From the IMG/VR virus record IMGVR_UViG_2778261670_000003: 37,551 nt of DNA; one strand, 5' to 3'. Origin of the DNA: a virus. Taxonomy: Duplodnaviria; Heunggongvirae; Uroviricota; Caudoviricetes. The translations under genes were made by a program, and so were the position numbers. Within the stretch, counting starts at the first letter, position 1; every line of letters starts with the position of its first letter. Below, piece by piece: positions 1 to 37,264 of this stretch. Below the pieces are notes generated by a model. The model was not told the origin of the DNA, did no database searches, and worked only from the letters and a program-made list of their open reading frames with translations.

Positions 1-1053
1 TTACGGGGTAATGCCAACCGCTGCCGCCACTTTGTCGCCATTTGGCAGCGTTGCCAGAGGATTGAAGCGGAGCGCCGTTTCCAGATGATCCGGTGCCAGA
101 TGTGCGTAACGCATAGTCATTTTTATATCGTGGTGTCCGAGAATTTTTTGTAAGGCCAGAATGTTTCCACCCGACATCATGAAGTGCGCCGCAAACGTAT
201 GGCGCAGAACGTGTGTGAGTTGACCGCGAGGGAGCACGATAGACGTTTTTTCCATCACGGATAAAAATTGAAAATAGCAGTCTGTGAAGAAATTGAACCC
301 ATCAAGCGCCATAATCTCTTCGTAAAGCTCTTTACTGATAGGGATACTTCTGTTTTTCTTCCCCTTCGTTCTTACAAAGGTAATTCGGTATTTGGTCACC
401 TGTGAACGAGTAAGATTTACGGCTTCTCGCCAGCGTGCGCCTGTGCTTAAGCATATCTTAACTACCAGTGCCAGAATTGGGTCCTGACGTTTGCAATCAG
501 CCAGTAATTCAACAATCTGCTCATGGGTAAGCCATGCCATCTCTTTTTCTGAGATGGTGAATTTTCGCATGTTCTCCAGTGGGTTCGGATACGACCATTC
601 GCCCAGACGGGATAGTTCGCTAAAAACACTACTTAGATAGCTTTGCTCCAGGTTAATGGTGACCGGGCTTGCTCCTTTCTTCCATTTCTCGCTGAAGTAG
701 ATCTCGCCTGTCAGGCGTTTATCTCGATAGTGGGCAAACATTTTAGAGGTGAGATCGGTTGCAAGGGGATTGCCCAGAGCGTCAACCATCAACAGCAATT
801 TGTCATAGACATGCTGCCCAGCGGTTAGAGATTTACCATGTAGTTTGAACCATAGCTCAACCACGTCTTTCAGTGTTCGACGATCCACTGATTCTCCCAG
901 CCAGGGCTTTGCTTCGGTTTCTTCCATCGTATGGCGCTCAAAAGCCAGAGCTTCGCCTTTGGTGGCGAATTGTTTACGCACACGACGCCCACTACGTCCG
1001 GCGGGGTAACATTCGCAAAGCCATTTTCCTGTGGTGAGTTTTCGTACTGCCAT
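1..1053 (-). CDS. int: Tyrosine integrase (P2/186 Int family)
   Basis: 350-aa product starting MAVRKLTTGKW with C-terminal catalytic region (HVLRHTFA...MTMRYAHL). GAGGG SD 8 nt upstream of ATG at 1053. The ORF track extends to 1068, but that upstream ATG is part of the SD. Stop codon at 1-3. Confidence 0.9.
   Translation of the reverse strand: MAVRKLTTGKWLCECYPAGRSGRRVRKQFATKGEALAFERHTMEETEAKPWLGESVDRRTLKDVVELWFKLHGKSLTAGQHVYDKLLLMVDALGNPLATDLTSKMFAHYRDKRLTGEIYFSEKWKKGASPVTINLEQSYLSSVFSELSRLGEWSYPNPLENMRKFTISEKEMAWLTHEQIVELLADCKRQDPILALVVKICLSTGARWREAVNLTRSQVTKYRITFVRTKGKKNRSIPISKELYEEIMALDGFNFFTDCYFQFLSVMEKTSIVLPRGQLTHVLRHTFAAHFMMSGGNILALQKILGHHDIKMTMRYAHLAPDHLETALRFNPLATLPNGDKVAAAVGITP
19..41. 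repeat. Putative attL core (cgctgccgccaCtttgtcgccat), overlapping the 3' end of int
   Basis: Seen directly: 22 of 23 nt identical to 34697-34719. Lies inside the last codons of the integrase ORF. Confidence 0.5.
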
Positions 1054-1078
1054 AAAAAATGCCCTCATGTCAGAGGGC
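1054..1078 (-). terminator. Hairpin (GCCCTC-6nt-GAGGGC) followed by T-run on the minus strand, downstream of the cargo operon and overlapping the int RBS
   Basis: Stem 1061-1066 / 1073-1078, loop 1067-1072. Minus-strand continuation reads ATTTTTT (1054-1060). Confidence 0.4.
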
Positions 1079-1134: not shown

Positions 1135-1656
1135 TTACCTTAATTTATCAAGCTCTCGTTTATTTCTTTTATCATGTATATCATTAAGAAATAATATATT
1201 ACTAGCAATGATACTAAATAACGCTATTATTTGTAGATATACTAATAACGCTGTGATAAAAAATCCAAACTTGCAGAACACGTGCTTATGCAAGGAAATG
1301 AAATCCAGATTTGAAAATATAGGTTTCGTTAAATTTATTATAACAATAGAAAATATTACAATAGCTGAAATTATAATGGTTTTCACTATCAGCGTAATTC
1401 GCTCAATATCTTTTTCTGTTTCCTTATGATAGTTTATACTAGTTATTGTTGATGGCTTTACAATTGAACTTACAGCTGCAGGGTAAATATATGCAAGCCA
1501 AATACCTGCAATAGTGAAGATCATTGCAGAAATGTTTTGCAAGGTAGATAAAATATCTTTTATATCTGCATACGTATATTTGTCTCCGAACAAATAAGCA
1601 ATAGCTATAATTGTTAGGAGAAAACATATGTGCAAAATTTTAGGTTTTATAATCAT
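1135..1656 (-). CDS. Small integral membrane protein (about 4 predicted TM helices), unknown function; second gene of AT-rich cargo cassette
   Basis: Four long hydrophobic stretches in the translation. AGGTG SD 6 nt upstream of ATG at 1656. An alternative GTG start at 1665 overlaps the upstream gene. AT-rich relative to phage backbone. Confidence 0.7.
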   Translation of the reverse strand: MIIKPKILHICFLLTIIAIAYLFGDKYTYADIKDILSTLQNISAMIFTIAGIWLAYIYPAAVSSIVKPSTITSINYHKETEKDIERITLIVKTIIISAIVIFSIVIINLTKPIFSNLDFISLHKHVFCKFGFFITALLVYLQIIALFSIIASNILFLNDIHDKRNKRELDKLR

Positions 1657-1657
1657 A

Positions 1658-2860
1658 CTATGCACCTATTTTATGAATCTGCACTGCTGTATCATTATCA
1701 GCTTCTGGTTGTTCTATTATATCTTCATTTTTAAAACAATTCACCAAATCATTTCTATGAGCTTTTACTACACTCATTAAATATGAAGAAGAGTAATGTT
1801 TGTTTCTGTTAGAAAGGTCAACGTGAATTTCATGGCGATAAACATATTCATCTAACCAAGTAGTTGAACCATTTTTTCCATTTATTTTGAATCCGATGCG
1901 TGCGTGATCATTCCCTACATTCTCATTGTTGTTTTCTGTATCTTCTGAAATAGGATTGTGGTTTTCTATATATTCATCGATGAGTTTAGTGAACTCTTCA
2001 GGCGTAGGCGTTCCTTCGACTAATAATTCAACGCGATGTTTTTTTGATAAAATAGGAGAGCTTCTTGAGAAAACATCTCCAACTGCATCAAATAACTTCT
2101 GCCATTTTTCCCGTGTATCAGGTATGTTTGTTTCTATTACGTCATGGTAAACAATGTGAGTGATTTTTTTACACAGTTCTTCTATGTTTGCTCCACTCGT
2201 GATCATCCTTGTTTGTTTAGTCTGTACTTTAAAAACTAAACTTTCATCATCACCTTGAGAAAAAAGAACACGTTTGTAATGAACGTCTTCAGGTGAGTCA
2301 TTACGAGGACGAGTCATATCTATGACTTTTTTATTAGGATGCTCCATCCTAAAGTCAACGTATGCTTTAATATAATGACAGAAAAGATCTGTATCCGTAT
2401 TAGAACTTGGGAATCGTATGGATGCAATTTTGTTATATTCTGGAATTACCCAATAGTAGCAAGGTACGCCCCAGATATATTTACCGCCACCTTGAGTATC
2501 AGAGGCGGATACAACATTATCTGAAGTGCCGTCAATCTTACTTTCAGCATCTATACCTTGAATATTTCCAGAGTTATCACCAAGCGTTTTCCAGATAACA
2601 AATAGATAATCTCCTGTCGTACTGTCATATGAAATATTTTTACAGTATGCTTTTGTTCTTCTATTATTATCCTTTCCCCATGGAACAGATTGTTCAACTG
2701 TTCTTGAACAGATCCAGCTATGTAAGTTACACAGAACATGGGATAAGTTCTTTTCGACTAATTCCGGCGATTTACCTTGTCGTATTTTATAAAGGCCAAA
2801 CATTTCTAAATCAAAAAATGTTATAATGCCGCGTTCAGTTTTAAAGTTGGTTTTACTCAT
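1658..2860 (-). CDS. Hypothetical 400-aa soluble protein, unknown function; first gene of AT-rich cargo cassette
   Basis: Long uninterrupted ORF with ATG at 2860. No motif I can assign to a known family. AT-rich. Immediately followed by the membrane protein gene. Confidence 0.75.
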   Translation of the reverse strand: MSKTNFKTERGIITFFDLEMFGLYKIRQGKSPELVEKNLSHVLCNLHSWICSRTVEQSVPWGKDNNRRTKAYCKNISYDSTTGDYLFVIWKTLGDNSGNIQGIDAESKIDGTSDNVVSASDTQGGGKYIWGVPCYYWVIPEYNKIASIRFPSSNTDTDLFCHYIKAYVDFRMEHPNKKVIDMTRPRNDSPEDVHYKRVLFSQGDDESLVFKVQTKQTRMITSGANIEELCKKITHIVYHDVIETNIPDTREKWQKLFDAVGDVFSRSSPILSKKHRVELLVEGTPTPEEFTKLIDEYIENHNPISEDTENNNENVGNDHARIGFKINGKNGSTTWLDEYVYRHEIHVDLSNRNKHYSSSYLMSVVKAHRNDLVNCFKNEDIIEQPEADNDTAVQIHKIGA

Positions 2861-2940: not shown

Positions 2941-3822
2941 TTAATTCGAAATGATTGTGCTTCTTATGCATGCAACTACCTCGATATCAGAAAATGCACA
3001 TTCAAAGTAAGTTTCTTTACTTCTGATATTTATCATACCTTTAGGTAGCCTAGTAATTTGTCTGACGGAATAGGTTCCATCAATATTAATTAACCAGTAT
3101 CCATCTAATACATCAGAAAATTTCTGATCACAGATGTATGTCACTAAACCATCCTGAACGACAATTGGTGCTGAAAGATTAGCGGGTAAAAATGACGAAT
3201 CGAAAATATATGAGCCACTCTCAACCATTTTGCCTGCATTGAGATGAAATTTAGGCAGTTCTTTTACCGATGTTGTGAGAGCATTGTGCTCGCTGCCTTG
3301 TCCAGTGGCTAGCCATAAAAGAGAATTTCCTGTTTCCAACGAACATTTTATGATCCAATCAGCCGGGAATGTGTCTCGCAAATATCTATTTGCCATAGTG
3401 CTTTTAGATACATTCAGATGGTCGGCAAGTTCTTGTCTTGTTTTAAAGCCATACGCTTTCATTAGCCTGTCTATTGCATCACGTCCGCCTGAGTCCAAAT
3501 TCAGATCGTTCCCAATTGGGGACTTCAGTGTGGTGGCTTGGGAAACGTGCTGAACCTTTGATGCAGTTGCCTTTGACATGACCGGAGCCTCAGTACTCTG
3601 AGGGAATGGTACGCCTTTTCCGAATGAGAGCCACTCGATAGATGCACCCGTTTCAATTGCACACTGAATTACCCAGTCAGCAGGAAATACGTCACGCATC
3701 CAGCGCGTGCCCATAGTGCTTGCAGATACGTTGAACTGTTCGCACAGAGCTTGCCTTGTCTTGAATCCATACGCTTCAAGCATGCGCGTTATGACTGCTT
3801 GTCCTCCGTTTTTGAAATTCAT
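2941..3822 (-). CDS. Immunity repressor, CI-like, with a tandemly duplicated N-terminal DNA-binding domain
   Basis: Two homologous about 65-aa repeats (…YGFKTRQ…STM…R…FPADW…ETG…WL…G). Position between int and cox/apl, divergent from the lytic operon. No obvious S24 Ser/Lys cleavage motif. Confidence 0.8.
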   Translation of the reverse strand: MNFKNGGQAVITRMLEAYGFKTRQALCEQFNVSASTMGTRWMRDVFPADWVIQCAIETGASIEWLSFGKGVPFPQSTEAPVMSKATASKVQHVSQATTLKSPIGNDLNLDSGGRDAIDRLMKAYGFKTRQELADHLNVSKSTMANRYLRDTFPADWIIKCSLETGNSLLWLATGQGSEHNALTTSVKELPKFHLNAGKMVESGSYIFDSSFLPANLSAPIVVQDGLVTYICDQKFSDVLDGYWLINIDGTYSVRQITRLPKGMINIRSKETYFECAFSDIEVVACIRSTIISN

Positions 3823-5752: not shown

Positions 5753-6606
5753 GCACCATCCTGAAATGGGCGGGAAATAAAACCGCCATAATGTCCGAAC
5801 TGAAAAAGCATCTTCCTGCTGGCCCGCGACTGGTTGAACCTTTCGCGGGATCCTGTGCAGTGATGATGGAGACGGATTACCCTAGCTATCTTGTTGCGGA
5901 TATTAATCCTGATTTAATCAACCTCTATAAAAAGGTTGCTGCTGATTGTGAGGCGTTTATATCTCGTGCCAGAGCTTTATTTGAGGAAGCAAACAGGGAG
6001 GTGGCTTATTACAACATAAGGCAGGAGTTTAATTACTCCACTGAAATTACTGATTTCATGAAAGCGGTATATTTTCTGTATCTCAATCGTCATGGTTACC
6101 GTGGGTTATGTCGCTATAACAAGAGCGGGTATTTCAACATTCCCTACGGTAATTATAAAAATCCGTATTTCCCTGAAAAAGAAATTCGCGCATTTGCAGA
6201 GAAAGCCCAGCGAGCAACGTTTATCTGCGCCAGCTTTGATGAAACGCTGGCGATGCTGCAGGTGGGGGATGTGGTGTATTGCGATCCGCCTTATGACGGT
6301 ACGTTTTCCGGTTATCACACTGACGGCTTCACTGAAGATGACCAGTATCACCTGGCATCTGTTCTTGAATATCGATCATCAGAAGGTCATCCAGTCATTG
6401 TTTCTAACAGTGACACATCCCTGATCCGTTCGCTGTATCGAAATTTCACTCACCACTACATCAAGGCAAAACGCAGCATCGGCGTGTCGGCTGGCGAGAG
6501 TAAATCTGCAACAGAAATCATTGCTGTTTCCGGAGCGCGCTGCTGGGTGGGATTTGATCCTTCGTGTGGCGTGGATAGTTCTGCTGTGTACGAGGTGCGC
6601 GTATGA
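5749..6606 (+). CDS. dam: DNA adenine methyltransferase (Dam family, N6-adenine)
   Basis: N-terminal LKWAGNK, FAGS motif and catalytic DPPY motif. ATG at 5749 overlaps the previous stop (ATGA). The ORF track start at 5635 is an out-of-context N-terminal extension. Confidence 0.9.
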
Positions 6607-9017
6607 GTCATGACGATATGAGCAACTCTAGCGGCTTTAACGAGGCCGCTGCAGCATTTTCATGGAACGGCCCGAAAAAGGCCATTAACCCTTATCTGGA
6701 CCCGGCGGAAGTTGCGCCGGAGTCTGCACTTTCAAACCTGATCACTCTGTACGCTGCCGATAATGAGCAGGAACAGCTGCGCCGCGATGCACTGAGTGAG
6801 CAGGTCTGGGAGCGTTATTTCTTTAATGAATCCCGTGATCCTGTCCAGCGCGAAATGGAGCAGGATAAGCTCATTAGCCGGGCAAAGCTGGCGCATGAGC
6901 AGCAGCGTTTTAATCCAGACATGGTCATTCTGGCTGACGTCAACGCCCAACCTTCCCATATCAGCAAGCCGCTGATGCAACGTATTGAATACTTCAGCAG
7001 CCTGGGCAGGCCAAAGGCTTATTCTCGCTATTTGCGTGAGACGATTAAGCCATGTCTGGAACGACTGGAGCATGTACGCGACAGTCAGCTATCCACTTCT
7101 TTTCGCTTTATGGCAAGCCATGAAGGGCTGGACGGCCTGCTGATCCTGCCTGAAATGAGTCAGGATCAGGTGAAACGCCTGTCTACCCTTGTCGCTGCGC
7201 ATATGAGCATGTGTCTTGATGCCGCTTGTGGTGATTTGTACGCCACCGATGATGTTAAGCCAGAAGAAATCCGCAAGACATGGGAAAAGGTGGCAGCGGA
7301 AACCCTACGTTTGGATGTCATCCCGCCTGCGTTTGAGCAACTCCGTCGGAAAAGAAACCGCCGTAAACCAGTGCCCTATGAACTCATTCCGGGCTCGCTG
7401 GCGCGTATGCTGTGCGCCGACTGGTGGTATCGGAAATTGTGGAAGATGCGTTGCGAATGGCGGGAAGAGCAGTTGCGTGCTGTCTGCCTGGTCAGCAAAA
7501 AAGCATCTCCCTATGTCAGCTATGAAGCTGTGATGCATAAACGTGAGCAGCGCCGTAAGTCGCTGGAGTTTTTCCGTTCTCATGAACTGGTGAACGAAGA
7601 CGGAGACGCGCTGGATATGGAAGATGTGGTAAACGCCAGCTGCAGCAACCCGGCGCATCGCCGCAATGAGATGATGGCCTGTGTTAAAGGTCTGGAGCTT
7701 ATCGCGGAAATGCGCGGTGACTGCGCCGTTTTCTACACCATTACCTGTCCGTCACGTTTCCATTCCACGCTCAATAACGGCAGACCCAACCCGACCTGGA
7801 AAAACGCGACGGTAAGACAAAGCAGCGATTATCTGGTCGGTATGTTTGCTGCATTTCGTAAGGCGATGCACAAAGCCGGGTTGCGCTGGTATGGCGTGCG
7901 GGTGGCTGAGCCGCATCACGACGGCACAGTTCACTGGCACCTGTTGTGTTTCATGCGCAAAAAAGACCGCCGCGCCATTACTGCATTGTTGCGTAAGTTT
8001 GCTATCCGTGAAGACCGCGAGGAGCTGGGCAATAACACTGGGCCGCGCTTTAAGTCTGAGTTGATTAACCCGCGCAAAGGTACGCCAACAAGCTACATCG
8101 CGAAATACATCAGTAAGAACATTGACGGGCGTGGTCTGGCTGGCGAGATCAGCAAGGAAACGGGGAAATCCCTGCGTGATAATGCTGAATACGTTAATGC
8201 CTGGGCGTCTCTGCATCGTGTTCAGCAATTCCGCTTCTTTGGCATTCCGGGGCGTCAGGCTTACCGTGAACTGCGATTGCTGGCTGGTCAGGCGGCAAGG
8301 CAACAGGGGGACAAAAAAGCAGGTGCGCCGGTACTGGATAACCCGCGCCTTGATGCAATCCTGGCTGCTGCTGATGCTGGTTGTTTTGCCACCTACATCA
8401 TGAAGCAGGGCGGCGTACTGGTTCCCCGCAAATATCACCTGATCAGAACCGCTTATGAAATCAACGAAGAGCCGACCGCCTATGGCGATCACGGCATTCG
8501 TATTTATGGCATCTGGTCACCCATTGCAGAGGGCAAGATCTGCACTCATGCAGTGAAGTGGAAAATGGTTCGTAAGGCCGTTGACGTTCAGGAGGCGGCA
8601 GCCGACCAGGGCGCTTGCGCCTCTTGGACTCGTGGCAATAACTGTCCCCTTGCTGAAAATTTAAACCAACAAGGGAAAGACAAATCAGCTGATGGGGACT
8701 CCAGAACGGATATTACCCGTATGAATGACAAGGAGTTGCACGATTACCTGCACAGTATGAGCAAAAAAGAGCGCCGGGAACTGGCTGCAAGGTTACGCCA
8801 GGTGAAACCGAAACGGCGTAAAGACTACAAACAGCGAATTACAGACCATCAGCGACAGCAGCTCGTCTATGAACTGAAGTCTAGGGGATTTGATGGCAGC
8901 GAGAAAGAAGTCGATTTGCTCCTTCGCGGCGGCAGTATTCCGTCAGGAGCAGGCCTGCGTATCTTCTATCGGAACCAGCGTCTGAAGGAAGATGATAAGT
9001 GGCGGAACCTGTATTAA
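6603..9017 (+). CDS. Replication initiation endonuclease (P2 gpA-like rolling-circle initiator)
   Basis: 804-aa product with HUH-type VHWHLL motif. Position downstream of early genes as in P2/186. Confidence 0.9.
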
Positions 9018-9109
9018 TTACGCGGGTTAACAATTCGTGCTCTTAATAATACCAGGCATATCAGGCCGATGAACGTAAAAAAACGTTTTACATCAGTAAG
9101 ATTATTATA

Positions 9110-9129
9110 TACTGTAAATATAAACAGTG
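9110..9129. promoter_or_regulatory. LexA (SOS) box TACTGTAAATATAAACAGTG
   Basis: CTGT-N8-ACAG with an AT-rich spacer, about 40 nt upstream of the 9170 ORF. A second degenerate half-site follows at about 9127-9146. Confidence 0.6.
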
Positions 9130-9169
9130 GTTATGTATACAGTATTGTTTTGGTGTCATAGGAGGAAAG

Positions 9170-9358
9170 ATGCAGGACTATTTTTTGGAGTCTTTGAAGC
9201 TCCAGCGCATTGATTTTTTTCTTAAGCTTGTAGCGGCTAGTGAGTGTAGTGATGAAGAGAAGGGGCTGGCTCTGCAGTGGGTTTCTGAATTGACTGATGA
9301 ACTCATGGCAAAAATCAGAAGCCACGAATACAACCGCTCAATGGATGTCATCAGCTGA
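9170..9358 (+). CDS. Small hypothetical protein, first ORF of SOS-controlled module (Tum-like N-terminal part?)
   Basis: Strong GGAGG SD at 9161-9165, ATG at 9170; 62 aa. Confidence 0.5.
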   Translation: MQDYFLESLKLQRIDFFLKLVAASECSDEEKGLALQWVSELTDELMAKIRSHEYNRSMDVIS

Positions 9359-9368
9359 GGTGACTTTT

Positions 9369-9602
9369 ATGCGCATTGAAATAATGATCGATAAAGAGCA
9401 GAAGATTAGCCAGTCTACCCTGGACGCCCTTGAATCCGAGCTTTACCGCAATCTGCGCCCCCTGTATCCCAAAACGGTAATTCGCATTCGCAAAGGTAGC
9501 TCTAACGGTGTGGAACTAACCGGACTGCAACTGGATGAAGAAAGAAAACAAGTGATGAAAATTATGCAGAAGGTGTGGGAGGACGACAGCTGGCTGCATT
9601 AA
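9369..9602 (+). CDS. dinI: DinI-family protein (186 Tum-like C-terminal antirepressor domain)
   Basis: 77-aa product MRIEIMIDKEQ…, similar in length and pattern to E. coli DinI (MRIEVTIAK…). GAGGTG SD upstream. LexA box upstream. Confidence 0.8.
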   Translation: MRIEIMIDKEQKISQSTLDALESELYRNLRPLYPKTVIRIRKGSSNGVELTGLQLDEERKQVMKIMQKVWEDDSWLH

Positions 9603-9610
9603 GAAACGTT

Positions 9611-9640
9611 GCCCCCAGGAGGATTCATTCTGATGGGGGC
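9611..9640 (+). terminator. GC-rich hairpin (GCCCCCA-16nt-TGGGGGC) after dinI-like gene
   Basis: Seen directly; weak T-tract (tagttt) follows. Confidence 0.3.
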
Positions 9641-9800
9641 TAGTTTGGGCAATGAGTGAAATAAGGCGTAAGGTGGGCGGTTATTTTGATAAGTGATCGT
9701 CCGCTTTGTGTCAGAAGCAGAAGCAGAAGTGGGAGTGTCTGAGACTCTCTAAAAGTTGATGATTCACTTACAAAACCATTTTCCTGATGGATGCTTACAC

Positions 9801-10136
9801 TTACGAATGATTATTCTGTTTAGTCTTCATGAGAAAATCCCGAATCTTTGCCAAGTTTGAGTTTTCGGGGATTGAATCCATGTACGGATCACGCTCAAAC
9901 ACTAATTGCTCAGATTCAACGAAAGCCTGCCACTCTACTGGGTCTAGCTCAAATCCCATTGCTGTCATATCACTTTCATCTTCCCCCTCGATCCAGTGGA
10001 CTAAATAAAACAATTCATCATCAGGAGAATCATCCTCACCATCGACAATATCAACATCGGTTACAGTGATACGTAGGGTGGGATCGATTTTTGAGACATA
10101 AATTCCTAACTGTGGTATAGGGGGAATATTGTTCAT
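9801..10136 (-). CDS. Small highly acidic protein (111 aa), unknown function
   Basis: AGGAG SD 5 nt upstream of ATG at 10136. Very D/E-rich (DGEDDSPDDE, EGEDESD). Divergent from the retron. Confidence 0.7.
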   Translation of the reverse strand: MNNIPPIPQLGIYVSKIDPTLRITVTDVDIVDGEDDSPDDELFYLVHWIEGEDESDMTAMGFELDPVEWQAFVESEQLVFERDPYMDSIPENSNLAKIRDFLMKTKQNNHS

Positions 10137-10588
10137 GGAAACTCCTTTTATTGGTGCTTGCTATTTGAATAAAAATACGCCAAACAGAGTGTTAACTGTG
10201 AATATGGAAAGAATCGTTGTAAGTACCCCGCTTAGGTGTCCCATTCTATTTTAGAGGTTCTCGTGCATATGGATTATGTTATCTGAAAGTTAACTTCCGC
10301 TTCCCGTTCACAGCGAACATTCATCTTTGTAAACCCGTATGATCCGTTTTTCAAGTGGCCATTCAGATACGGATTTTCACTTCCTTGACAGTGCATGACT
10401 ATGCTGCATGAAATCGCATGATCGATTGAGGATCGTCTTTGCTCAGATCCGCCAGAACTGGCGGGCTTTTGCTCATGTCATGCATGTGCATGAAAACCAC
10501 TGCATAAAGCGGGCAGGCGTGGCGGGGATACGAGCGCGCGCTGAGCTGCATTCACTTGAATAATCCGTATGTTAGTGCTAGCCTAGCT

Positions 10589-10743
10589 GTGCCCTTAGCA
10601 GGAAAGTACATTCAATATGTTACTTTCTAGTGGTTGGTGTTTAGCCAACTCGTATGGATTGCTTGGTATCTCGACACAAGTTAGCCTTGTGTCATTTATA
10701 GACACCAGGCTAACTTGTGTCTCGGGAACTCTTGTATGGGCAT
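10589..10743 (+). ncRNA. Candidate retron msr-msd non-coding RNA (boundaries approximate)
   Basis: Ec86-like GTGCCCTTA-G motif at 10589-10598 (candidate a1 plus branching G). Imperfect complement TATGGGCAT at 10735-10743 (candidate a2). Two msr-like stem-loops at 10602-10627 and 10632-10647. A perfect 14-bp inverted repeat with nested hairpin at 10673-10721 is msd-like. Lies directly upstream of the effector and RT on the same strand. Confidence 0.4.
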
Positions 10744-11669
10744 TAATTGTTATGTGGTTTAAACATCCTAGATATTTACGAGCAAAAGAAAATTTTATTT
10801 CAAGTTTTTTTCCAAGTAACTTGAATTCTTTTAATTATATCCTGCCAAAAGTATTATTTATTTGTGGAGGAGATGAGACTTATTGTTCAAATAGAGGGAT
10901 GCTGGAAAAATATATTGCTAAGCATCATAAAGAATTTGTTACTTTTCGAGCAGAATTAGCATGGGACGTAATTAGCAATTTAGGAACTCATAGTAATGTG
11001 AATGCGTTATCACTTGAAGAATGGCTTGCGGATTTTTCTGATGTGGTAATTATTCTCGTAGAGAGTTATGGCACTGTAGCTGAATTGGGCGCATTTTCAT
11101 TAAGTCCTGTTTTACGTAAAAAACTTCTTCCTATATTAGATAAAAAGTTTGAAAGTCATAAGTCATTTATCAATACAGGGCCCGTAAAATGGGTTGATAG
11201 TGAATCCAAATTTGGCCCTACAATCTATACTGAATTTGAGACAATTTTAACGTGTATGCCTAAAATAAATGAAAGGCTAAATAGGAAAGTTCAATCAAAC
11301 ATAACTAATACAAATTCAATAGGTGATTACAAATATTCACCAAAAATTTTTTTATTTTTTGTGCTCGTTGTTATATCTTCTTTAGGTCCAATAACAATTC
11401 CTGAGATTATTAATATCACAGGTAGGTTGATAAATTATAAAATTAATAAAAATATTTCATTTGTTGTTTCTATTGGAGTTGCTCTTGGGATTTTTAAGGA
11501 AAGTCGATTTGAGGGCGTGACCCATTATTCATGTGTCGATTATATTAAATTTTTTAATCATGAAAAGATGAAAGATTTAGTTGAAAGTATTCAACGAAGT
11601 AGAGCTAGATCATTATCCGATTTAATAATGATATCTAAATTCAAAGCAGAATTAGAAAGGATCATGTGA
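10617..11669 (+). CDS. Retron effector, nucleoside 2-deoxyribosyltransferase-like (NDT-like) with C-terminal hydrophobic segments
   Basis: ESYGTVAELGA resembles the NDT catalytic-glutamate motif, after a beta-strand-like KVLFICGG. Two C-terminal hydrophobic stretches. AT-rich. The 10617 ATG has an AGGAAA SD but lies inside a predicted RNA hairpin; the true start may be ATG 10752, just after the candidate a2. Confidence 0.7.
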   Translation: MLLSSGWCLANSYGLLGISTQVSLVSFIDTRLTCVSGTLVWALIVMWFKHPRYLRAKENFISSFFPSNLNSFNYILPKVLFICGGDETYCSNRGMLEKYIAKHHKEFVTFRAELAWDVISNLGTHSNVNALSLEEWLADFSDVVIILVESYGTVAELGAFSLSPVLRKKLLPILDKKFESHKSFINTGPVKWVDSESKFGPTIYTEFETILTCMPKINERLNRKVQSNITNTNSIGDYKYSPKIFLFFVLVVISSLGPITIPEIINITGRLINYKINKNISFVVSIGVALGIFKESRFEGVTHYSCVDYIKFFNHEKMKDLVESIQRSRARSLSDLIMISKFKAELERIM

Positions 11670-11670
11670 T

Positions 11671-12600
11671 ATGTTAATTGAGTATCTAGCTAAAGTTTTA
11701 CTGTTAGAAGCTGATTTTATATTAAAAGTTGCAAATGATGCTAACTCGCATTATGGTAAATTTTCTGTACCTAAAAAAGGCGGTGGGACAAGAATCGTCT
11801 ATCAGCCCTCTAAAGAATTAAAAGTTTTGCAGAGATTACTTCATGATAATGTTCTGTCGAAATTGCCGATTCATCCAAATGCTGTAGCATATCAGCAGGG
11901 TTCATCAGTGTTCAAACATGCAAGCATTCACAAAGCTAAACGTTTTATGCTTAAGATGGACTTTGAAGGTTTTTTTGATTCAATTAAGGAAAGTGATGTT
12001 GAGAGATTTATAAACGACAACAAGCATTTCTTCAGTGATGATTGGTCAAAGGATGATACTGATTTGCTGGTAAAAATAGTATGCTTTAACGGGAGACTGA
12101 CTATGGGTGCTGTTAGTTCCCCTGTGGTAAGCAATGCTATATGCTATGAATTAGATCATATATTGAATGAATTTTGTCTTTCAAAAGGTGTAACATATAC
12201 ACGCTATGCTGATGATATGTACTTCTCAACAAACGAAGAAAATGTATTGAAGCAAATACCACCTTTTTTACGCTCGAATTTAAAAACTTTAAAATACCCA
12301 TCAAAACTATGGATTAATAGAAAAAAGACACTGCATATGTCAAAGAAAAATAAAATGATGGTTACGGGTGTGACTTTGACAACAGATGGTGGAGTATCCT
12401 TAGGGAGAGATAAAAAAAGGATGGTTAAATCGCTTATTTTTAAATGGGAGGCTCTTGATGAGAAGAAAAGGCTATTTCTTCAAGGATATTTATCGTATTG
12501 CAAAAGTGTTGAGCCATTATTTATTAATAGGCTTTGTGCGAAATATTCATCAGAGCTGATTGATGAAATCCAGAGATATCAACCTGAAGTATCAGAATAA
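11671..12600 (+). CDS. Retron-type reverse transcriptase
   Basis: Motifs VYQPSKELKVLQ, LKMDFEGFFDSI, YTRYADDMYFS (YADD catalytic) and MVTGVTLT (retron VTG motif) align with Ec86 RT as I recall it. 309 aa, the typical retron RT size. Confidence 0.9.
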   Translation: MLIEYLAKVLLLEADFILKVANDANSHYGKFSVPKKGGGTRIVYQPSKELKVLQRLLHDNVLSKLPIHPNAVAYQQGSSVFKHASIHKAKRFMLKMDFEGFFDSIKESDVERFINDNKHFFSDDWSKDDTDLLVKIVCFNGRLTMGAVSSPVVSNAICYELDHILNEFCLSKGVTYTRYADDMYFSTNEENVLKQIPPFLRSNLKTLKYPSKLWINRKKTLHMSKKNKMMVTGVTLTTDGGVSLGRDKKRMVKSLIFKWEALDEKKRLFLQGYLSYCKSVEPLFINRLCAKYSSELIDEIQRYQPEVSE

Positions 12601-12606
12601 CGTGTG

Positions 12607-12637
12607 TGCGCATGAAAATTTCCATGCGCATTTTCTT
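12607..12637 (+). terminator. Rho-independent terminator (TGCGCATG-8nt-CATGCGCA then TTTTCTT) after the RT gene
   Basis: Perfect 8-bp stem followed by a T-run; sits between convergent RT and portal genes. Confidence 0.6.
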
Positions 12638-13661
12638 AAAAACAGTAGTCATTAAATGAAATAATTTCTTTTCCAGCCCAGTTATTCAGTGATTCAAAAT
12701 TCTTTTGCAATGGCATTAACTCATTCCGCACAAACACTTTGCTTGCCTTCTCCACATCCCCAAATCCCCCAACATTATTAGGCATAATCCCCATCATCTG
12801 CGGCGGCACGCGGTGTGCCGCCATCATGTCATCGCGACTAACATTTTTGATATTCAAAAACTCATCCTTCGCCGCGACTTCTGACAATGGGATGATCTGA
12901 AGCCCGTCTTTTTTGCCGTTAGGCGAGTACATAAACAGGTTGCGGAAGTTGCCTGGCCCTTTGGCGCTTTTCATCGCGTTGCGGAGGTTGTTCACATCCT
13001 CCTGGTTCTGAGCGGCATCGGTCATGTACATTATGAATCCTGCATGGCTGCCATTAATATAATATTTGCGTCGGAACAGCGTGGCGGACTCGTTGAGCAG
13101 GGCTGACGGAATGGCAGAAAGATAACCGGGCAGGCCGTAGATCTCCTGGTTGATATCGGGTTCCATCAGATGAAAGATGCTGCCTTTCGTGAACTGATAC
13201 GGCTGGGTTGTCATACTGTATTGCACAAACCAGTAGGTATCCAGGTCTAACCCGCGTCGGGTGTATTTTGCCAGTGCAGGCTCAAGGGCGATAACTTCAC
13301 CGAAGCGGTTCGTGCGTTTCTCCAGGTAGGCGTTACCAAAAACCAGATAGTCCTGCACAAAACGCGAAAAAGCCTGCTGGCTGAGCAGCGGGTGAGGGAT
13401 GTAGGTGCTGGTCAGAATGTTGCACTTCACTGCAATCGGTGAGCTGTGATGCACGGCGGCGCGGAAGGTTCGCGCCAGTCCGTCGAAACTCACAGGCGGC
13501 TCATACCAACGATCCATCTGTACGCATTCCACATAGTCCAGCAGTTCGCGGCGGTCCAGAACAGGAACGGGATCACCGAAGCTGAATGCTTCGGCTGAAG
13601 TTTGGTTTTTATGCTGGATCTGATTCGTCGCCGCAGCGCGTTTTTTCTTACTCTTTCCCAT
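12636..13661 (-). CDS. Portal protein (P2 gpQ-like)
   Basis: 341-aa product, size and position match P2 Q. ATG at 13661; the ORF track begins one codon earlier at a TTG. Confidence 0.9.
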   Translation of the reverse strand: MGKSKKKRAAATNQIQHKNQTSAEAFSFGDPVPVLDRRELLDYVECVQMDRWYEPPVSFDGLARTFRAAVHHSSPIAVKCNILTSTYIPHPLLSQQAFSRFVQDYLVFGNAYLEKRTNRFGEVIALEPALAKYTRRGLDLDTYWFVQYSMTTQPYQFTKGSIFHLMEPDINQEIYGLPGYLSAIPSALLNESATLFRRKYYINGSHAGFIMYMTDAAQNQEDVNNLRNAMKSAKGPGNFRNLFMYSPNGKKDGLQIIPLSEVAAKDEFLNIKNVSRDDMMAAHRVPPQMMGIMPNNVGGFGDVEKASKVFVRNELMPLQKNFESLNNWAGKEIISFNDYCF

Positions 13662-15427
13662 CAAAAAATCTCCACAATATTGCTGGTATTGGCGGACTCG
13701 CCCTGCAGCGGTTCGTTAAACAGTGCGTGCATGGTTGCCCAGGCCAGATCGGCATGGCTGGCTTCTTCGCTGCGGCTGGCTTCATAGGTCGGGCGGTTGC
13801 CGCTGGCGGTGGTGGCGCGACGGATTGCCATAAATGACTGCGCTATGTCGGTGTGTCCGGCGTCAAACTCCAGACGGCGGTGACTGATAATGTCGTAGGC
13901 CTTGAGTACCAGGGCGTTTTTAACGTTGGGGTTGTAGACAAACTCCCGGACGGCTGGAAAAAACGCTTTCACGTTCTCGTAAACCCCGTGGCCGACACCT
14001 GTCGAGTCGATGCCGATGTAGGTCACGTTGTACTGCTCGGTCAGTTTTTTGATGGCGTCAGCCTGGGCGCGGAAGTCCATCCCGCGCCACTGGTGACGCT
14101 CAAGAATGCGGAACTTGCCGCCCGGCACGGCTGGCGGTGCCACCACCACGCATCCGGCGCTGTCGCCGTTCTGCGTACCTTTGGCCGGGTCATAACCGAT
14201 CCACACTTCGCGCCAGCCAAACGGGCGCAGTGCCAGTGCATGAAAGTCGGTCCAGACTTCCCAGCTGTCCACCATGCACGCCTGCAGCTCGCTGAGCGGG
14301 AACACGGACGCGAGATCGTCCACGAACTCGCACATCAGCAGGTTTTGGTATTCGTCCGGGCTGTACTCCATGCGTAGCTGGTCGAGGTCGAACAGGTTAC
14401 AGCCGCCGCGCACCGCATCTTCCACGGTGACTATCTGGCGGTATTGCCCGTCAGCGCACAGCAGGCCGGGGGCCAGGTTGTTGTGGGACAGGTCGATGTC
14501 CACCTTATCGGCTTTGTTGCGTCCACGGTTGAACAGCGCACCGGACCAGAACGGATAAGCACTGTGGGTCAGGCTGGATGGCGTGGAAAAATAGGTTTGT
14601 CGCCATTTTTTGTGAATAGCCATACCGGAAGCCACTTTGCGCAGCTCCTGGAATTTCGGTATCCAGAAATATTCATCCAGATACAGGTTGCCGTGGTAAC
14701 TCTGGGCCGTGCGGGCATTGGTGCCGAGGAAGTAAAGCGTGGCCCCGTTAGGAAGCACCATCGGATCGCCTTTCAGCTCCACCTCCACTTCTTTGGCGAA
14801 GTCGATGATGTACTGCTTAAAGACGTGGGCCTGTGCCTTACTGGCGGAAAGGAAAATCTGGTTACGCCCGGTAAGCAGGGCGTCAATCAGGGCTTCACGG
14901 GCAAAGTAAAAGGTCGCGCCGATCTGGCGTGACTTCAGCAGGTTGCGGATGCGGTTGGTTTTTCCGGCTTCCCACCAGTGGCGCTGGTAGTTGAACATGG
15001 AGGAATGGAAGATTTCTTCCAGCTTCTCAATCTGCTCATCGGTGAAAACATTCTTTTCCGGCTGACGGCGTGGGCCTTTGTTGCGGTTGGCGACGTTAGG
15101 GTTTAAGTCGGCTTCGTTGCCGCCATTGTTAAACTTGCCGATCCGCGCGTGGCGCTCCGACTGGCGCGCCAGCAGGTCAATCTCTTTGAAATCTTTCCCT
15201 TCTTTGTGCTCCTTCATGATGAGCTGGCAGTAGCGTGCGGCGGTGGTGAGCTGCATCTGATCCAGCGGCCCATAGTCACCCCACTTGTCGCGTTTTTTCC
15301 AGCTGTGAACGGTTGCAACTTTCTCGCCCAGCATTTCAGCTATGCGGGCTACGCGGTATCCCTGAAAGTACAGCAGCATGGCCTGCCGACGGGGATCGAG
15401 ATCTGCGGGTGTCAGTGTGGTGTTCAT
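13661..15427 (-). CDS. Terminase large (ATPase) subunit (P2 gpP-like)
   Basis: 588 aa, co-oriented with portal. P2 P is about 590 aa. Confidence 0.9.
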   Translation of the reverse strand: MNTTLTPADLDPRRQAMLLYFQGYRVARIAEMLGEKVATVHSWKKRDKWGDYGPLDQMQLTTAARYCQLIMKEHKEGKDFKEIDLLARQSERHARIGKFNNGGNEADLNPNVANRNKGPRRQPEKNVFTDEQIEKLEEIFHSSMFNYQRHWWEAGKTNRIRNLLKSRQIGATFYFAREALIDALLTGRNQIFLSASKAQAHVFKQYIIDFAKEVEVELKGDPMVLPNGATLYFLGTNARTAQSYHGNLYLDEYFWIPKFQELRKVASGMAIHKKWRQTYFSTPSSLTHSAYPFWSGALFNRGRNKADKVDIDLSHNNLAPGLLCADGQYRQIVTVEDAVRGGCNLFDLDQLRMEYSPDEYQNLLMCEFVDDLASVFPLSELQACMVDSWEVWTDFHALALRPFGWREVWIGYDPAKGTQNGDSAGCVVVAPPAVPGGKFRILERHQWRGMDFRAQADAIKKLTEQYNVTYIGIDSTGVGHGVYENVKAFFPAVREFVYNPNVKNALVLKAYDIISHRRLEFDAGHTDIAQSFMAIRRATTASGNRPTYEASRSEEASHADLAWATMHALFNEPLQGESANTSNIVEIF

Positions 15428-26813: not shown

Positions 26814-26840
26814 CCCCGGTTTTTATTCAGGGGATTGATC

Positions 26841-27407
26841 ATGCTTATTGGCTATGTACGCGTGTCAACAAATGACCAGAACACCGATTTGCAACGTAAT
26901 GCACTGAACTGCGCGGGATGTGAGCGGATTTTTGAGGACAAAATCAGTGGCACTAAGTCCGACAGACCGGGACTGAAAAAACTGCTCAGGACATTATCGG
27001 CAGGTGACACTCTGGTTGTCTGGAAGCTGGACAGGTTGGGGCGCAGTATGCGGCATCTCGTTACGCTGATAGAAGAGCTGCGCCAGCGTGGCGTGAATTT
27101 CCGAAGCCTGACTGACAGTATTGATACCAGTACCCCAATGGGCCGTTTCTTTTTTCATGTCATGGGGGCCCTGGCTGAAATGGAGCGCGAACTGATAGTT
27201 GAACGTACCAGGGCGGGGCTGGCTGCAGCTCGCGCCAAAGGCAGAGTAGGTGGACGCCGTCCTAAGTTGATCACCGAACAGTGGGCACAGATTGGACGTT
27301 TACTCGAGGCCGGAGAATCAAGACAGCGTATTGCACTGATTTTTGATGTAGGTGTTTCCACAATTTATAGAAAATTTCCGGCAAATAAGAGCAATGAATC
27401 CCCCTGA
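26841..27407 (+). CDS. Site-specific DNA invertase, serine recombinase (Hin/Gin/Pin/Cin family)
   Basis: N-terminal …GYVRVSTNDQ… catalytic serine motif and C-terminal HTH; 188 aa. Adjacent to the invertible segment. Confidence 0.9.
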   Translation: MLIGYVRVSTNDQNTDLQRNALNCAGCERIFEDKISGTKSDRPGLKKLLRTLSAGDTLVVWKLDRLGRSMRHLVTLIEELRQRGVNFRSLTDSIDTSTPMGRFFFHVMGALAEMERELIVERTRAGLAAARAKGRVGGRRPKLITEQWAQIGRLLEAGESRQRIALIFDVGVSTIYRKFPANKSNESP

Positions 27408-34931: not shown

Positions 34932-36617
34932 TTATCCTAATCCTGGCCATACCATGACGATGATTGTCCCTGCCAGCGTCAGCAGGACGTTGGCGATTGC
35001 GTAGGTGCCCGCATAGCCCAGCGCAGGGATGTTACTGCGAGCTGTATCACTGATGATCTCCATTGCCGGCGCGCAGGTGCGTGCGCCCATCATTGCGCCG
35101 AACAACAGTGCGCGGTTCATTCGCAATACATAAGCACCGAACAAGAAACAGATAACCACGGGCACAAGACTGACAATTAATCCGGCAATCAACATCTGAC
35201 CGCCAATCGCGCCCAGGCCGTTATTAATACCGCTACCGGCGCTCAGACCAACGCCTGCCATAAACACCATCAAGCCGAACTCTTTCACCATGCTTAATGC
35301 ACCTTGCGGAATGTAACCGAAGGTCGGGTGGTTAGCACGCATAAAGCCCAGCATAATTCCGGCGAATAACAACCCGGCAGCGTTCCCCATGCCGAAACTG
35401 AATGTGCTGAACTGGAAGGTGATCATCCCGATCATCAGCCCAATAACAAAGAAGGCGCAAAATGCCAGCAGGTCAGTGACCTGGCTGTGAATCGAGATAA
35501 AGCCGATGCGATCGGCGATGGTTTTTACGCGACGGGCATCACCGCTGACTTGTAAAACGTCACCTTTGTTAAGCACGACGTTGTCATCTATCGGCATCTC
35601 AATCTGGCTACGAATGACGCGGTTAAGGAAGCAACCGTGATCGGTCAACTTCAGTTGTGCGAGACGTTTACCTACAGCGTTATGGTTTTTAACGACCACT
35701 TCTTCAGTGACGATACGCATGTCGAGAAGGTCACGATCGAAAACTTCTTTACCGTTACGGAAGCTGGGATCGAGTCGGGCATGGGCGTCGGGATAGCCTA
35801 CCAACGCTATTTCATCGCCCATTTGTAGCACGGCATCACCGTCTGGATTTGCCAGAATCCCGTTACGTCGAATACGTTCAATGTAGCAGCCGGTTTGTCG
35901 ATAAATACCCAGTTCACGCAGATTTTTGCCGTCGGTCCAGGCCACCAGCTCCGGGCCGACGCGATAGGCGCGGATCACCGGTAAATAAACCTTACGGTTG
36001 GCATCAGTGTCCAGGCCACGTTCGCGGGCGATTTGCTGGGCGCTGGTCTGTAAGTCCTGATGCTGCAATTTCGGCAAGTAACGCGCACCAACAATCAAAC
36101 TCACCAGACCGATTAAATAGGTTAAGGCATACCCGAGGCTCAGATTATCCAGTGCCAGTGAGAGCTGCCTGCTTTCCATGCCGGAATGACGCAGTGTATC
36201 GCCAGCACCGACCAGAACCGGTGTCGACGTCATAGAGCCTGCTAACATACCGGCCGTCAGGCCAATATCCCAGCCAAACAGCTTACCTAACCCTAAGGCG
36301 ATCACCAGCGCACTGCCAACCATCACCAGTGCTAACATTAGGTAATTTTTCCCATCGCGAAAAAAAATGGAAAAAAAGTTCGGTCCGGCTTCGACCCCGA
36401 CGCAGAAAATAAACAGCATAAAGCCAAGATTAAGCGCATCGGTGTTAATGCTGAAATGTTGTTGGCCTAATAACAGCGATACGACTAAAACGCCAATGGA
36501 ATTACCCAGTTGGATCGAACCAAGTCGTAACTTTCCGAGACATAGCCCAAGCGCGAGGACCACAAATAATAACAGAATGTAATTCCCATTTAACAATTCG
36601 GCGACGTTTATATTCAC
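34932..36617 (-). CDS. ybjL: Putative transport protein YbjL (host chromosomal gene)
   Basis: 561-aa polytopic membrane protein with central soluble domains. Recognised as E. coli YbjL by size and by synteny with ybjM and grxA. Confidence 0.85.
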
Positions 36618-36886: not shown

Positions 36887-37264
36887 GTGAAACATAAACA
36901 ACGTTGGGCGGGGGCAATCTGCTGTTTTGTCCTCTTCATTGTGGTGTGCCTTTTTCTGGCGACGCACATGAAAGGCGCTTTTCGGGCTGCCGGGCATCCT
37001 GAAATCGGCTTGCTATTTTTCATTCTTCCTGGAGCAGTCGCCAGCTTCTTTTCACAGCGTAGAGAAGTCCTGAAACCTCTGTTTGGCGCAATGCTGGCGG
37101 CACCCTGTTCGATGCTCATTATGCGGCTGTTTTTTTCACCGACGCGCTCATTCTGGCAAGAGCTGGCATGGTTACTAAGCGCGGTGTTCTGGTGTGCGCT
37201 GGGGGCACTGTGTTTCTTATTTATCAGTAGTTTGTTTAAACCACAGCACAGAAAAAATCAGTAA
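36887..37264 (+). CDS. ybjM: Inner membrane protein YbjM (host)
   Basis: 125-aa hydrophobic protein, AGGAGG SD, GTG start. Confidence 0.8.
   Translation: MKHKQRWAGAICCFVLFIVVCLFLATHMKGAFRAAGHPEIGLLFFILPGAVASFFSQRREVLKPLFGAMLAAPCSMLIMRLFFSPTRSFWQELAWLLSAVFWCALGALCFLFISSLFKPQHRKNQ

Follow-up and report, generated by a model that had tools for sequence, protein, structure and literature searches.

The window analyzed here, the whole 37,551-nucleotide stretch of the IMG/VR viral record IMGVR_UViG_2778261670_000003 (Caudoviricetes), carries a retron locus in which a non-coding RNA (ncRNA), a gene for a nucleoside 2′-deoxyribosyltransferase (NDT)-like effector, and a gene for a reverse transcriptase (RT) follow one another on the plus strand (Table 1). 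This arrangement had been proposed in an initial annotation made from the letters alone, and curated family models, a covariance model of the ncRNA, structure prediction, and comparison with a sister prophage now agree on it. Both open reading frames (ORFs) named there, 11671-12600 (+, 309 aa) and the preceding 10617-11669 (+, 350 aa as listed), are present, and the strings quoted for the RT (VYQPSKELKVLQ, LKMDFEGFFDSI, YTRYADDMYFS, and MVTGVTLT) and for the effector (ESYGTVAELGA) occur in their translations. The AT-richness ascribed to the two genes was evident from a GC content of 0.30-0.34 over 11001-12500, compared with 0.51-0.55 in gpA and 0.54-0.63 in the portal and terminase genes on the flanks. 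Taken as a whole, our data indicate that the locus is very probably a type II-A1 retron of the St85/Sen2 family, intact and lying as a self-contained cassette, with a promoter-like site and a terminator-like hairpin of its own, in the cos-proximal gpA-gpQ hotspot of an Elveevirus-type P2-like prophage. The retron is real but ordinary: the system type, its family, the presence of such elements in the gpA-gpQ hotspot, and the outline of the mechanism are already published, and in a copy from Escherichia coli Combat13F7 that is 100% identical, both proteins already bear the name "retron St85 family ..." in the standard RefSeq annotation (PGAP), so that the locus carries little weight as a discovery. 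What the analysis adds is the coordinates and structure of the ncRNA, the start of the effector, the subtype label, the breakpoints of the cargo, and its sharing between E. coli and Klebsiella.

Table 1. Features of the retron cargo, with positions counted in the window
Feature	Position	Strand	Basis
Variable cargo: retron plus last ~22 codons of portal gene, 2.16 kb	10545-12702		Sister-prophage breakpoints
Putative sigma-70 promoter, TTGAAT-17 nt-TAGCCT; predicted start about 10590, at a2	10556-10584	+	Read from sequence
Retron ncRNA (msr-msd)	10588-10745	+	Covariance model R1
a2 inverted repeat TGCCCTTA, pairs with a1	10590-10597	+	Helix 1 of model; CCTTA conserved
Predicted branching guanosine, 2′-OH primer for multicopy single-stranded DNA (msDNA)	10598	+	Invariant G of TTAG, directly 3′ of a2
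msr stem-loop 1	10601-10628	+	Minimum free energy (MFE) folds of 10/10 ncRNAs; 9/9 pairs compensatory
msr stem-loop 2, GGTTGGT-GTTTA-GCCAACT	10632-10650	+	Most conserved element; 95% paired
msd stem-loop, msDNA hairpin template; core arms 10673-10693 and 10701-10721	10665-10731	+	
a1 inverted repeat TATGGGCA, pairs with a2	10735-10742	+	Family consensus TAAGGG
Effector, RcaT/STM3845 family, 305 aa; predicted NDT-like N-glycosidase domain plus C-terminal winged-helix domain	10752-11669	+	Family profiles, model
Retron RT, 309 aa	11671-12600	+	Family profiles; ATG 1 nt past effector stop
Intrinsic terminator-like hairpin plus T-run past RT stop	12606-12641	+	Consensus scan: 9-pair stem (5 G-C), then TTTCTTAAAA

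Profile hidden Markov model searches of PADLOC and NCBIfam matched both proteins to retron RT and NDT-like effector families, as initially proposed. The RT reached 325.7 bits on the NCBIfam model NF038233 (retron_St85_RT), whose cut-off is 235, and the profile matches of the two proteins (3-289 of 289 and 8-274 of 277 positions) marked both ORFs as full length. In PADLOC, RT_II-A was the best match (5e-105) and RT_I-A the second, both end to end, and the top 25 matches were retron RT models only; the YADD and VTG motifs are present. The possibility that the enzyme belongs to a non-retron defense or mobile class (group II intron, abortive infection [Abi] or defense-associated RT [DRT], diversity-generating retroelement [DGR]), with the upstream hairpins being incidental, draws on the Pfam result, which was the generic RVT_1 alone (6e-23), and on weak sub-threshold matches to group II, Drt2, and AbiA models. 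These matches lie far under the curated NCBIfam cut-offs (group II intron, 38.3 of 300 bits; Drt2, 28.4 of 390; AbiA, 19.5 of 250), while the retron St85 model was passed, and no DGR RT model was among the RT matches in PADLOC and NCBIfam. Among solved structures, the 14 top-scoring relatives are without exception retron RTs, and the ncRNA upstream is conserved and covarying. A non-retron RT is thus extremely improbable and, as far as sequence analysis goes, is refuted.

The affinities of the RT also bear on the subtype label of the retron. The closest solved structures were 22et (187 bits), Ec78 (about 170 bits), and Ec83 (152 bits), all from clade 1 (types I-A/II-A1), whereas the Ec86 RT matched with 114 bits, compared with 150-187 bits for the clade-1 enzymes. 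According to Table 1 of Mestre et al. (2020), Retron-Sen2 (St85), Vc81, and Ec73 are type II-A1 with an RT of clade 1, and the II-A1 ncRNA class is common to type I-A; in the same table, Ec86 is II-A3 with an RT of clade 9, and a 2025 paper likewise labels Eco1 "type II-A3". The RT affinities and the ncRNA of the window therefore fit II-A1, and RT_I-A as the next-best affinity agrees with the grouping of the St85 clade with type I-A by Mestre et al. A type II-A3 (Ec86-like, clade 9) RT does not fit the scores above. Consequently, the initial designation "Sen2-type (II-A3)" was right in the Sen2 family and in the gene order but wrong in its II-A3 label.

The effector exceeded the cut-off of the 277-position NCBIfam model NF038232 (St85/STM3845 effector equivalog; 179.5 bits, cut-off 100) and matched PADLOC NDT_II-A (8.6e-54). 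PF28093 (STM3845) is found in the precomputed annotation of all homologues listed; the local Pfam search returned no model for the effector, with PF28093 appearing solely via those precomputed annotations. The family profiles start matching the 350-aa ORF only near residue 57-76, and the homologues, mostly 305-316 aa long, aligned over 100% of a query begun at ATG 10752 in a protein search. In a 20-sequence alignment, the homologues begin with MW(F/S/I)xHP(K/R)Y at this ATG, and W47, H50, and P51 (350-aa ORF numbering) are invariant. On the grounds of homologue lengths and the conserved MWxxHP start, the listed start at 10617, which RefSeq also uses, was rejected in favor of ATG 10752; the 45 codons upstream of it result from translation of the msr-msd region. 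This recurring annotation error is seen in the RefSeq model (WP_192827751.1, 350 aa) and in several metagenomic gene calls (P0001, P0010, and P0017; 349-371 aa). With homologues of 349, 360, and 371 aa occurring among the mostly 305-316-aa proteins, the start-site error probably affects other family records too. The value for annotation therefore lies in exact ncRNA coordinates and in a RefSeq effector model shown to be ~45 codons too long.

An AlphaFold2 model of the effector, built from a 59-sequence alignment (mean predicted local distance difference test [pLDDT] score, 86.4; predicted template modeling [TM] score, 0.85), consists of an N-terminal flavodoxin/NDT-like domain and a C-terminal domain of three helices and a beta-hairpin. 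The three significant Foldseek matches were all effector chains of Ec86 (Retron-Eco1), aligned over the full length (E, 2e-11 to 2e-10; TM-score, 0.56; 21% identity), followed by weaker matches to DNPH1, the CMP N-glycosidase BcmB, nucleoside 2′-deoxyribosyltransferases, and winged-helix proteins (BlaI, MarR, and ROQ). The predicted fold is compatible with NDT and is not diagnostic by itself. The NDT-like reading follows instead from the sequence homology to the Ec86 effector in the NDT-like domain (4e-18) and from the conserved catalytic-type glutamate E111, which corresponds to the residue replaced by alanine in the inactive-effector (E106A) entry 8qbl and is invariant across 59 homologues.

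The initial annotation had seen hydrophobic segments at the C-terminus of the effector and suggested that such a tail may mark a variant. A hydrophobic stretch does span residues 196-222 (counted from ATG 10752; Kyte-Doolittle mean up to 2.3), with one strong peak at residues 199-217 (mean, 2.3). A stretch of this kind (19-27 residues) could anchor a membrane-acting toxin in place of a soluble nucleotide/NAD N-glycosidase held in an RT-msDNA complex, and Mestre et al. (2020), besides describing the same C-terminal "winged helix", predicted a possible single transmembrane helix for the cluster to which the protein belongs. In the model, however, the stretch forms the first helix (197-211) of the winged-helix domain within a block of pLDDT 90-95, and two further helices and a beta-hairpin complete a winged-helix layout, in keeping with the Foldseek matches to BlaI, MarR, and ROQ. 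The full-length model also superposes on the Ec86 effector taken from retron complexes and filaments. Furthermore, K198, L201, F202, G212, and P213 are invariant or nearly so (59 sequences), and the segment falls inside the NCBIfam and PADLOC profile matches. Being conserved across the family, it is a regular feature of these proteins with nothing added, and hence not a variant mark, and a membrane-acting toxin is very improbable. The reading as a soluble, putatively N-glycosidase-type effector is kept in what follows.

Upstream of ATG 10752, direct reading of the letters gave TGCCCTTA-G-CAGGAAAG..., resembling the a2/branching-G start of known retron ncRNAs, and a 21-nt msd inverted repeat that is 95% complementary (10673-10693 with 10701-10721). 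The comparative set comprised 11 loci of other species encoding effector relatives. In 9 of the 11, the blocks CCTTAG, GTGGTTGGTGTATAGCCGACC, and TAAGGG lie just upstream of the effector start, with a hairpin of variable sequence between them. When folded singly, these nine sequences and that of the window adopted like structures, with an a2/a1 closing stem, the two msr stem-loops (the second one conserved), and a long hairpin in the msd. The counterpart of stem-loop 2 in type I-A and Ec86 structures is the element gripped by the RT. A covariance model (R1) built from eight other-species loci, with the window excluded, was searched against both strands of the window and gave one match, at 10588-10745 (+), with 97 bits and an E-value of 8e-22 over the full model length (1-156 of 156). 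The ncRNA start proposed initially (10589) lies within 1 nt of this match. R1 found no match in a sister prophage without the retron, nor in two of the loci with effector relatives, from Vibrio caribbeanicus and a Myxococcales genome (effector 31% identical); the ncRNA class may stop short of the most distant effector relatives, or R1 may be too narrow. An Rfam scan of 9000-13500 at E ≤ 1 returned no retron msr family and one chance match to a small nucleolar RNA.

Covariation across 12 aligned sequences was consistent with the proposed structure. Standard pairs were present in 89.9% of cells, as opposed to 36-48% in a control in which the 3′ partners were slid by 1-3 columns, and compensatory changes were found at 28 of 40 pairs overall; none of 500 shuffles reached the observed values. 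By element, such changes affect all 14 pairs of the msd stem, while its sequence and length vary between species, all 9 pairs of stem-loop 1, and 4 of the 8 pairs of the a1/a2 helix. In the related locus L013, for instance, TTAGCC/GGCTAA of the msd is changed to TGAGCC/GGCTCA. The alignment was fitted to the model and thereby favors the structure, but the slid controls and the separate MFE folds argue for a real signal. An outer pairing of AAUCCGUAUG with CGUAUGGAUU, suggested by a single-sequence MFE fold of 10545-10770, was rejected as not conserved, the family alignment backing a2/a1. The G of TTAG is invariant in all aligned loci, and the G at 10598 sits analogously to the branching G of characterized retrons. 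A branching-G mutant has been described for Sen2.

Some points weigh against an intact, working cassette. The a1 arm of the window reads TATGGG where the family has TAAGGG, which leaves one U.U mismatch (10595 with 10737) in the 8-bp a1/a2 stem, and this mismatch is absent from 10 of the 12 aligned family members. The putative promoter is weak and falls under the threshold of the consensus scan, and the target of RcaT-type effectors is called unclear in the literature. The cassette could accordingly be read as a decaying or inactive remnant in which the mismatch blocks msDNA priming, carried as neutral baggage or with the effector silenced otherwise; its rarity, with the whole cargo found in 8 of 5,426 complete E. 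coli genomes, would also suit a remnant. Yet both ORFs are full length, the ncRNA fits the covariance model end to end, and the cargo is conserved at 98-100% from E. coli prophages to Klebsiella phages. The same U.U base is found in L014, a diverged copy with a 92%-identical effector, together with an extra outer flanking pair, which suggests that the mismatch is a tolerated lineage feature. An RcaT-type toxin left unneutralized would moreover be expected to be counter-selected. We thus consider a remnant improbable and an intact retron the better account of the locus. As for the promoter, its geometry is kept in L014 (TTGAGT-17-TAGCCT) and L013 (TTGAGC-17-TATCTT), and this promoter-like site may start transcription near 10590.

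The position of a1 raises a further possibility. In 9 of the 12 loci (the window, at 10735-10754, L002-L006, L008, L013, and L014), 7-11 nt separate the end of the a1 purine run (UAAGGG, or UAUGGG in the window) from the effector start codon, and no other Shine-Dalgarno-like run lies between. The a1 arm might conceivably serve the toxin gene as its Shine-Dalgarno sequence as well, a suggestion we regard as doubtful. With the purine run locked in the a1/a2 stem, the stem may sequester the ribosome-binding site of the toxin gene; if so, toxin translation would be gated by the folding of the ncRNA and by its use for making msDNA, as an extra cis-regulatory layer. A cis-regulatory role of a1 is not described for Sen2-type retrons in the literature examined on them.

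The boundaries of the cargo were taken from a sister P2-like prophage (E. coli 1008S19), which is 98% identical to the window up to 10544 and 95% identical from 12703, and which carries a single gene for a 519-aa hypothetical protein between these breakpoints instead of the retron. The cargo therefore extends from 10545 to 12702. Many E. coli genomes match only to 10543-10544 of the window (query position 144-145). The left flank contains a DNA adenine methylase gene, gpA (6603-9017), two small genes, and one leftward small gene; on the right lie the genes for portal (12636-13664, minus strand), terminase, scaffold, and capsid. With gpA and the portal gene as its flanks and a sister prophage that swaps it, the cargo occupies the gpA-gpQ variable locus of a P2-like phage, as the initial annotation had placed it. 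Just left of the cargo, GGCGTGGCGGGGATACGAG (10516-10534) is a sequence that we take to be cos-like from the cohesive ends of P2 and 186. It matches 16 of the 19 positions of a degenerate P2/186 cos pattern and lies about 10 nt from the breakpoint; the pattern match is not significant alone, as 16 of 100 shuffles gave one match. If GGCGTGGCGGGGATACGAG is cos, the retron would lie between cos and the portal gene. Rousset et al. (2022) described the cos-proximal gpA-gpQ hotspot, which holds old and tin in P2, and listed retrons among its cargo.

Beyond the few complete E. coli genomes, the cargo also occurs, at 98.3% identity, in 13 Klebsiella phage records. Among these is phage 4LV2017 (KY271398; Peduoviridae, Elveevirus), whose deposited sequence represents prophage 4 of the K. 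pneumoniae ST307 clone. One retron cargo is thus shared at 98% identity by E. coli prophages and a prophage of epidemic K. pneumoniae ST307, which is relevant to host range in phage therapy. The papers examined that deposited or analyzed Klebsiella prophage 4 (KY271398) mention no retron. In the supplement of a retron census, the msd and protein strings of the window were absent; one K. pneumoniae II-A1 retron is listed there. An 80%-identical relative (P0002) occupies the same slot in another P2-like prophage. The 92%-identical retron copy of L014 (Logan SRR27876785 contig, 3152 bp) was followed by a GIY-YIG gene, not by portal, and preceded by a different cos-like flank; this lineage of retrons may be carried by another element as well, perhaps in a P4-like satellite hotspot. 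A second, 99.6%-identical copy of the prophage region was present in strain Combat13F7 itself, in the 45-kb pCombat13F7-1 (NZ_CP019246.1), which is labeled a plasmid. Frameshifts affect many genes of this copy, and no RT gene is annotated in it; instead of a true plasmid, it may represent a sequencing or assembly artifact derived from a phage that was excised or replicating.

The likely mode of action can be outlined from studied relatives. In Sen2 and Eco9, RcaT is a toxin that is bound by the RT and neutralized only by the RT together with mature msDNA. Known triggers are RecE, which degrades the msDNA, Dam, which methylates GATC in the hairpin, and a foreign RT such as RT-Eco1, which titrates it, all leading to abortive infection. 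Eco9 confers modest protection against T2 and T7, which in the case of T7 is lost when the phage kinase phosphorylates RcaT. In Eco1, the effector hydrolyzes NAD(P)+ as an N-glycosidase; it is held in RT-msDNA-effector assemblies and is activated by methylation of the msDNA. By analogy, the RT of the window would prime from the 2′-OH of G10598 and copy the msd leftward from about 10734, yielding a hairpin msDNA of roughly 75-85 nt. RT and msDNA would then bind the effector and keep it inactive, the three together forming a tripartite toxin-antitoxin system. Degradation, modification, or titration of the msDNA by a superinfecting phage (through a RecE-type exonuclease, a methylase, or the like) would free the effector, which might arrest or kill the lysogen before the cycle of the intruder is completed, such abortive infection shielding the host clone of the prophage. 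Judged from the Ec86 effector, the toxic chemistry probably consists in cleaving an N-glycosidic bond, either of NAD(P)+ or of a nucleotide.

One expected difference from Sen2 concerns the Dam trigger. No GATC occurs in 10589-10743, and in the lack of this site from the msDNA region the Dam trigger of Sen2 should not apply. Such expected insensitivity to Dam is in keeping with the adenine methylase that the phage itself encodes next to gpA, and a GATC-free msDNA may have been selected to ignore the Dam-type methylase of the prophage itself. In the chromosomal loci L002, L004, and L006 (Yersinia, Pectobacterium), the msd carries GATC on its 5′ arm, opposite a non-complementary 3′ arm of GCTC type, and the phage-borne msd sequences (window, L013, and L014) are without GATC. 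This split between chromosomal and phage-borne copies may relate to triggering by Dam, and a natural Sen2-type retron without GATC could help separate trigger specificities.

Among the named retrons, Retron-Sen2 (msDNA-St85 of Salmonella Typhimurium; msrmsd-rcaT-rrtT, II-A1) shares the gene order of ncRNA, effector, and RT, and both proteins of the window pass the NCBIfam models seeded on the St85 family. The window element is a diverged member, as the effector score relative to its cut-off shows, and it differs from Retron-Sen2 in its location, which is a P2-like prophage hotspot and Klebsiella phages as opposed to the Salmonella chromosomal locus, and in an msd region without the GATC through which Dam triggers Sen2. 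Retron-Eco9 (E. coli NILS-16), a Sen2-like element, has the same family and order and an RcaT-type toxin neutralized by its cognate RT and msDNA, and its triggers include RecE and RT-Eco1. Identity with Retron-Eco9 was rejected on a comparison through published phosphosite positions only: none of the four phosphoserines of RcaT-Eco9 (S155, S181, S254, and S292) corresponds to a serine in the 305-aa effector, only S254 does in the 350-aa ORF numbering, and the four-serine pattern is found at no constant offset in the window effector or in the 120 homologues listed. The window element is probably a different member. Retron-Eco1 (Ec86, II-A3; E. coli B/BL21) is also borne by a P2-like prophage, and its effector, homologous in the NDT-like domain and structurally alike over the full length, makes it the best mechanistic template, although its RT belongs to a different clade and the identity in the effector structural alignment is low (values above). 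In Ec86, the RT gene precedes the effector gene, unlike the order in the window. Compared with the old/tin cargo of P2, which occupies the same site between A and Q, by cos, and is AT-rich and swappable like the cargo of the window, no difference in kind was apparent, this retron being rare in E. coli.

Elsewhere in the window, the interval between the integrase gene (1-1068, minus strand) and the CI repressor gene (2941-3822, minus strand) holds two overlapping AT-rich genes, 1135-1665 (-) and 1658-2860 (-), with a GC content of about 0.31. The pair matched the PADLOC candidate system PDC-M18 (M18B, 5e-24; M18A, 2e-36), without a Pfam domain. The arrangement resembles a further cargo slot in this prophage, occupied by an uncharacterized candidate defense system. 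A serine invertase/resolvase gene (26835-27407, +) lies beside the tail-fiber region and is presumably a tail-fiber inversion switch. At the right end, the window runs into host genes, encoding an Asp-Al_Ex family permease (34932-36617, -) and YbjM (36887-37264, +), which places the end of the prophage near 34.4-34.9 kb.

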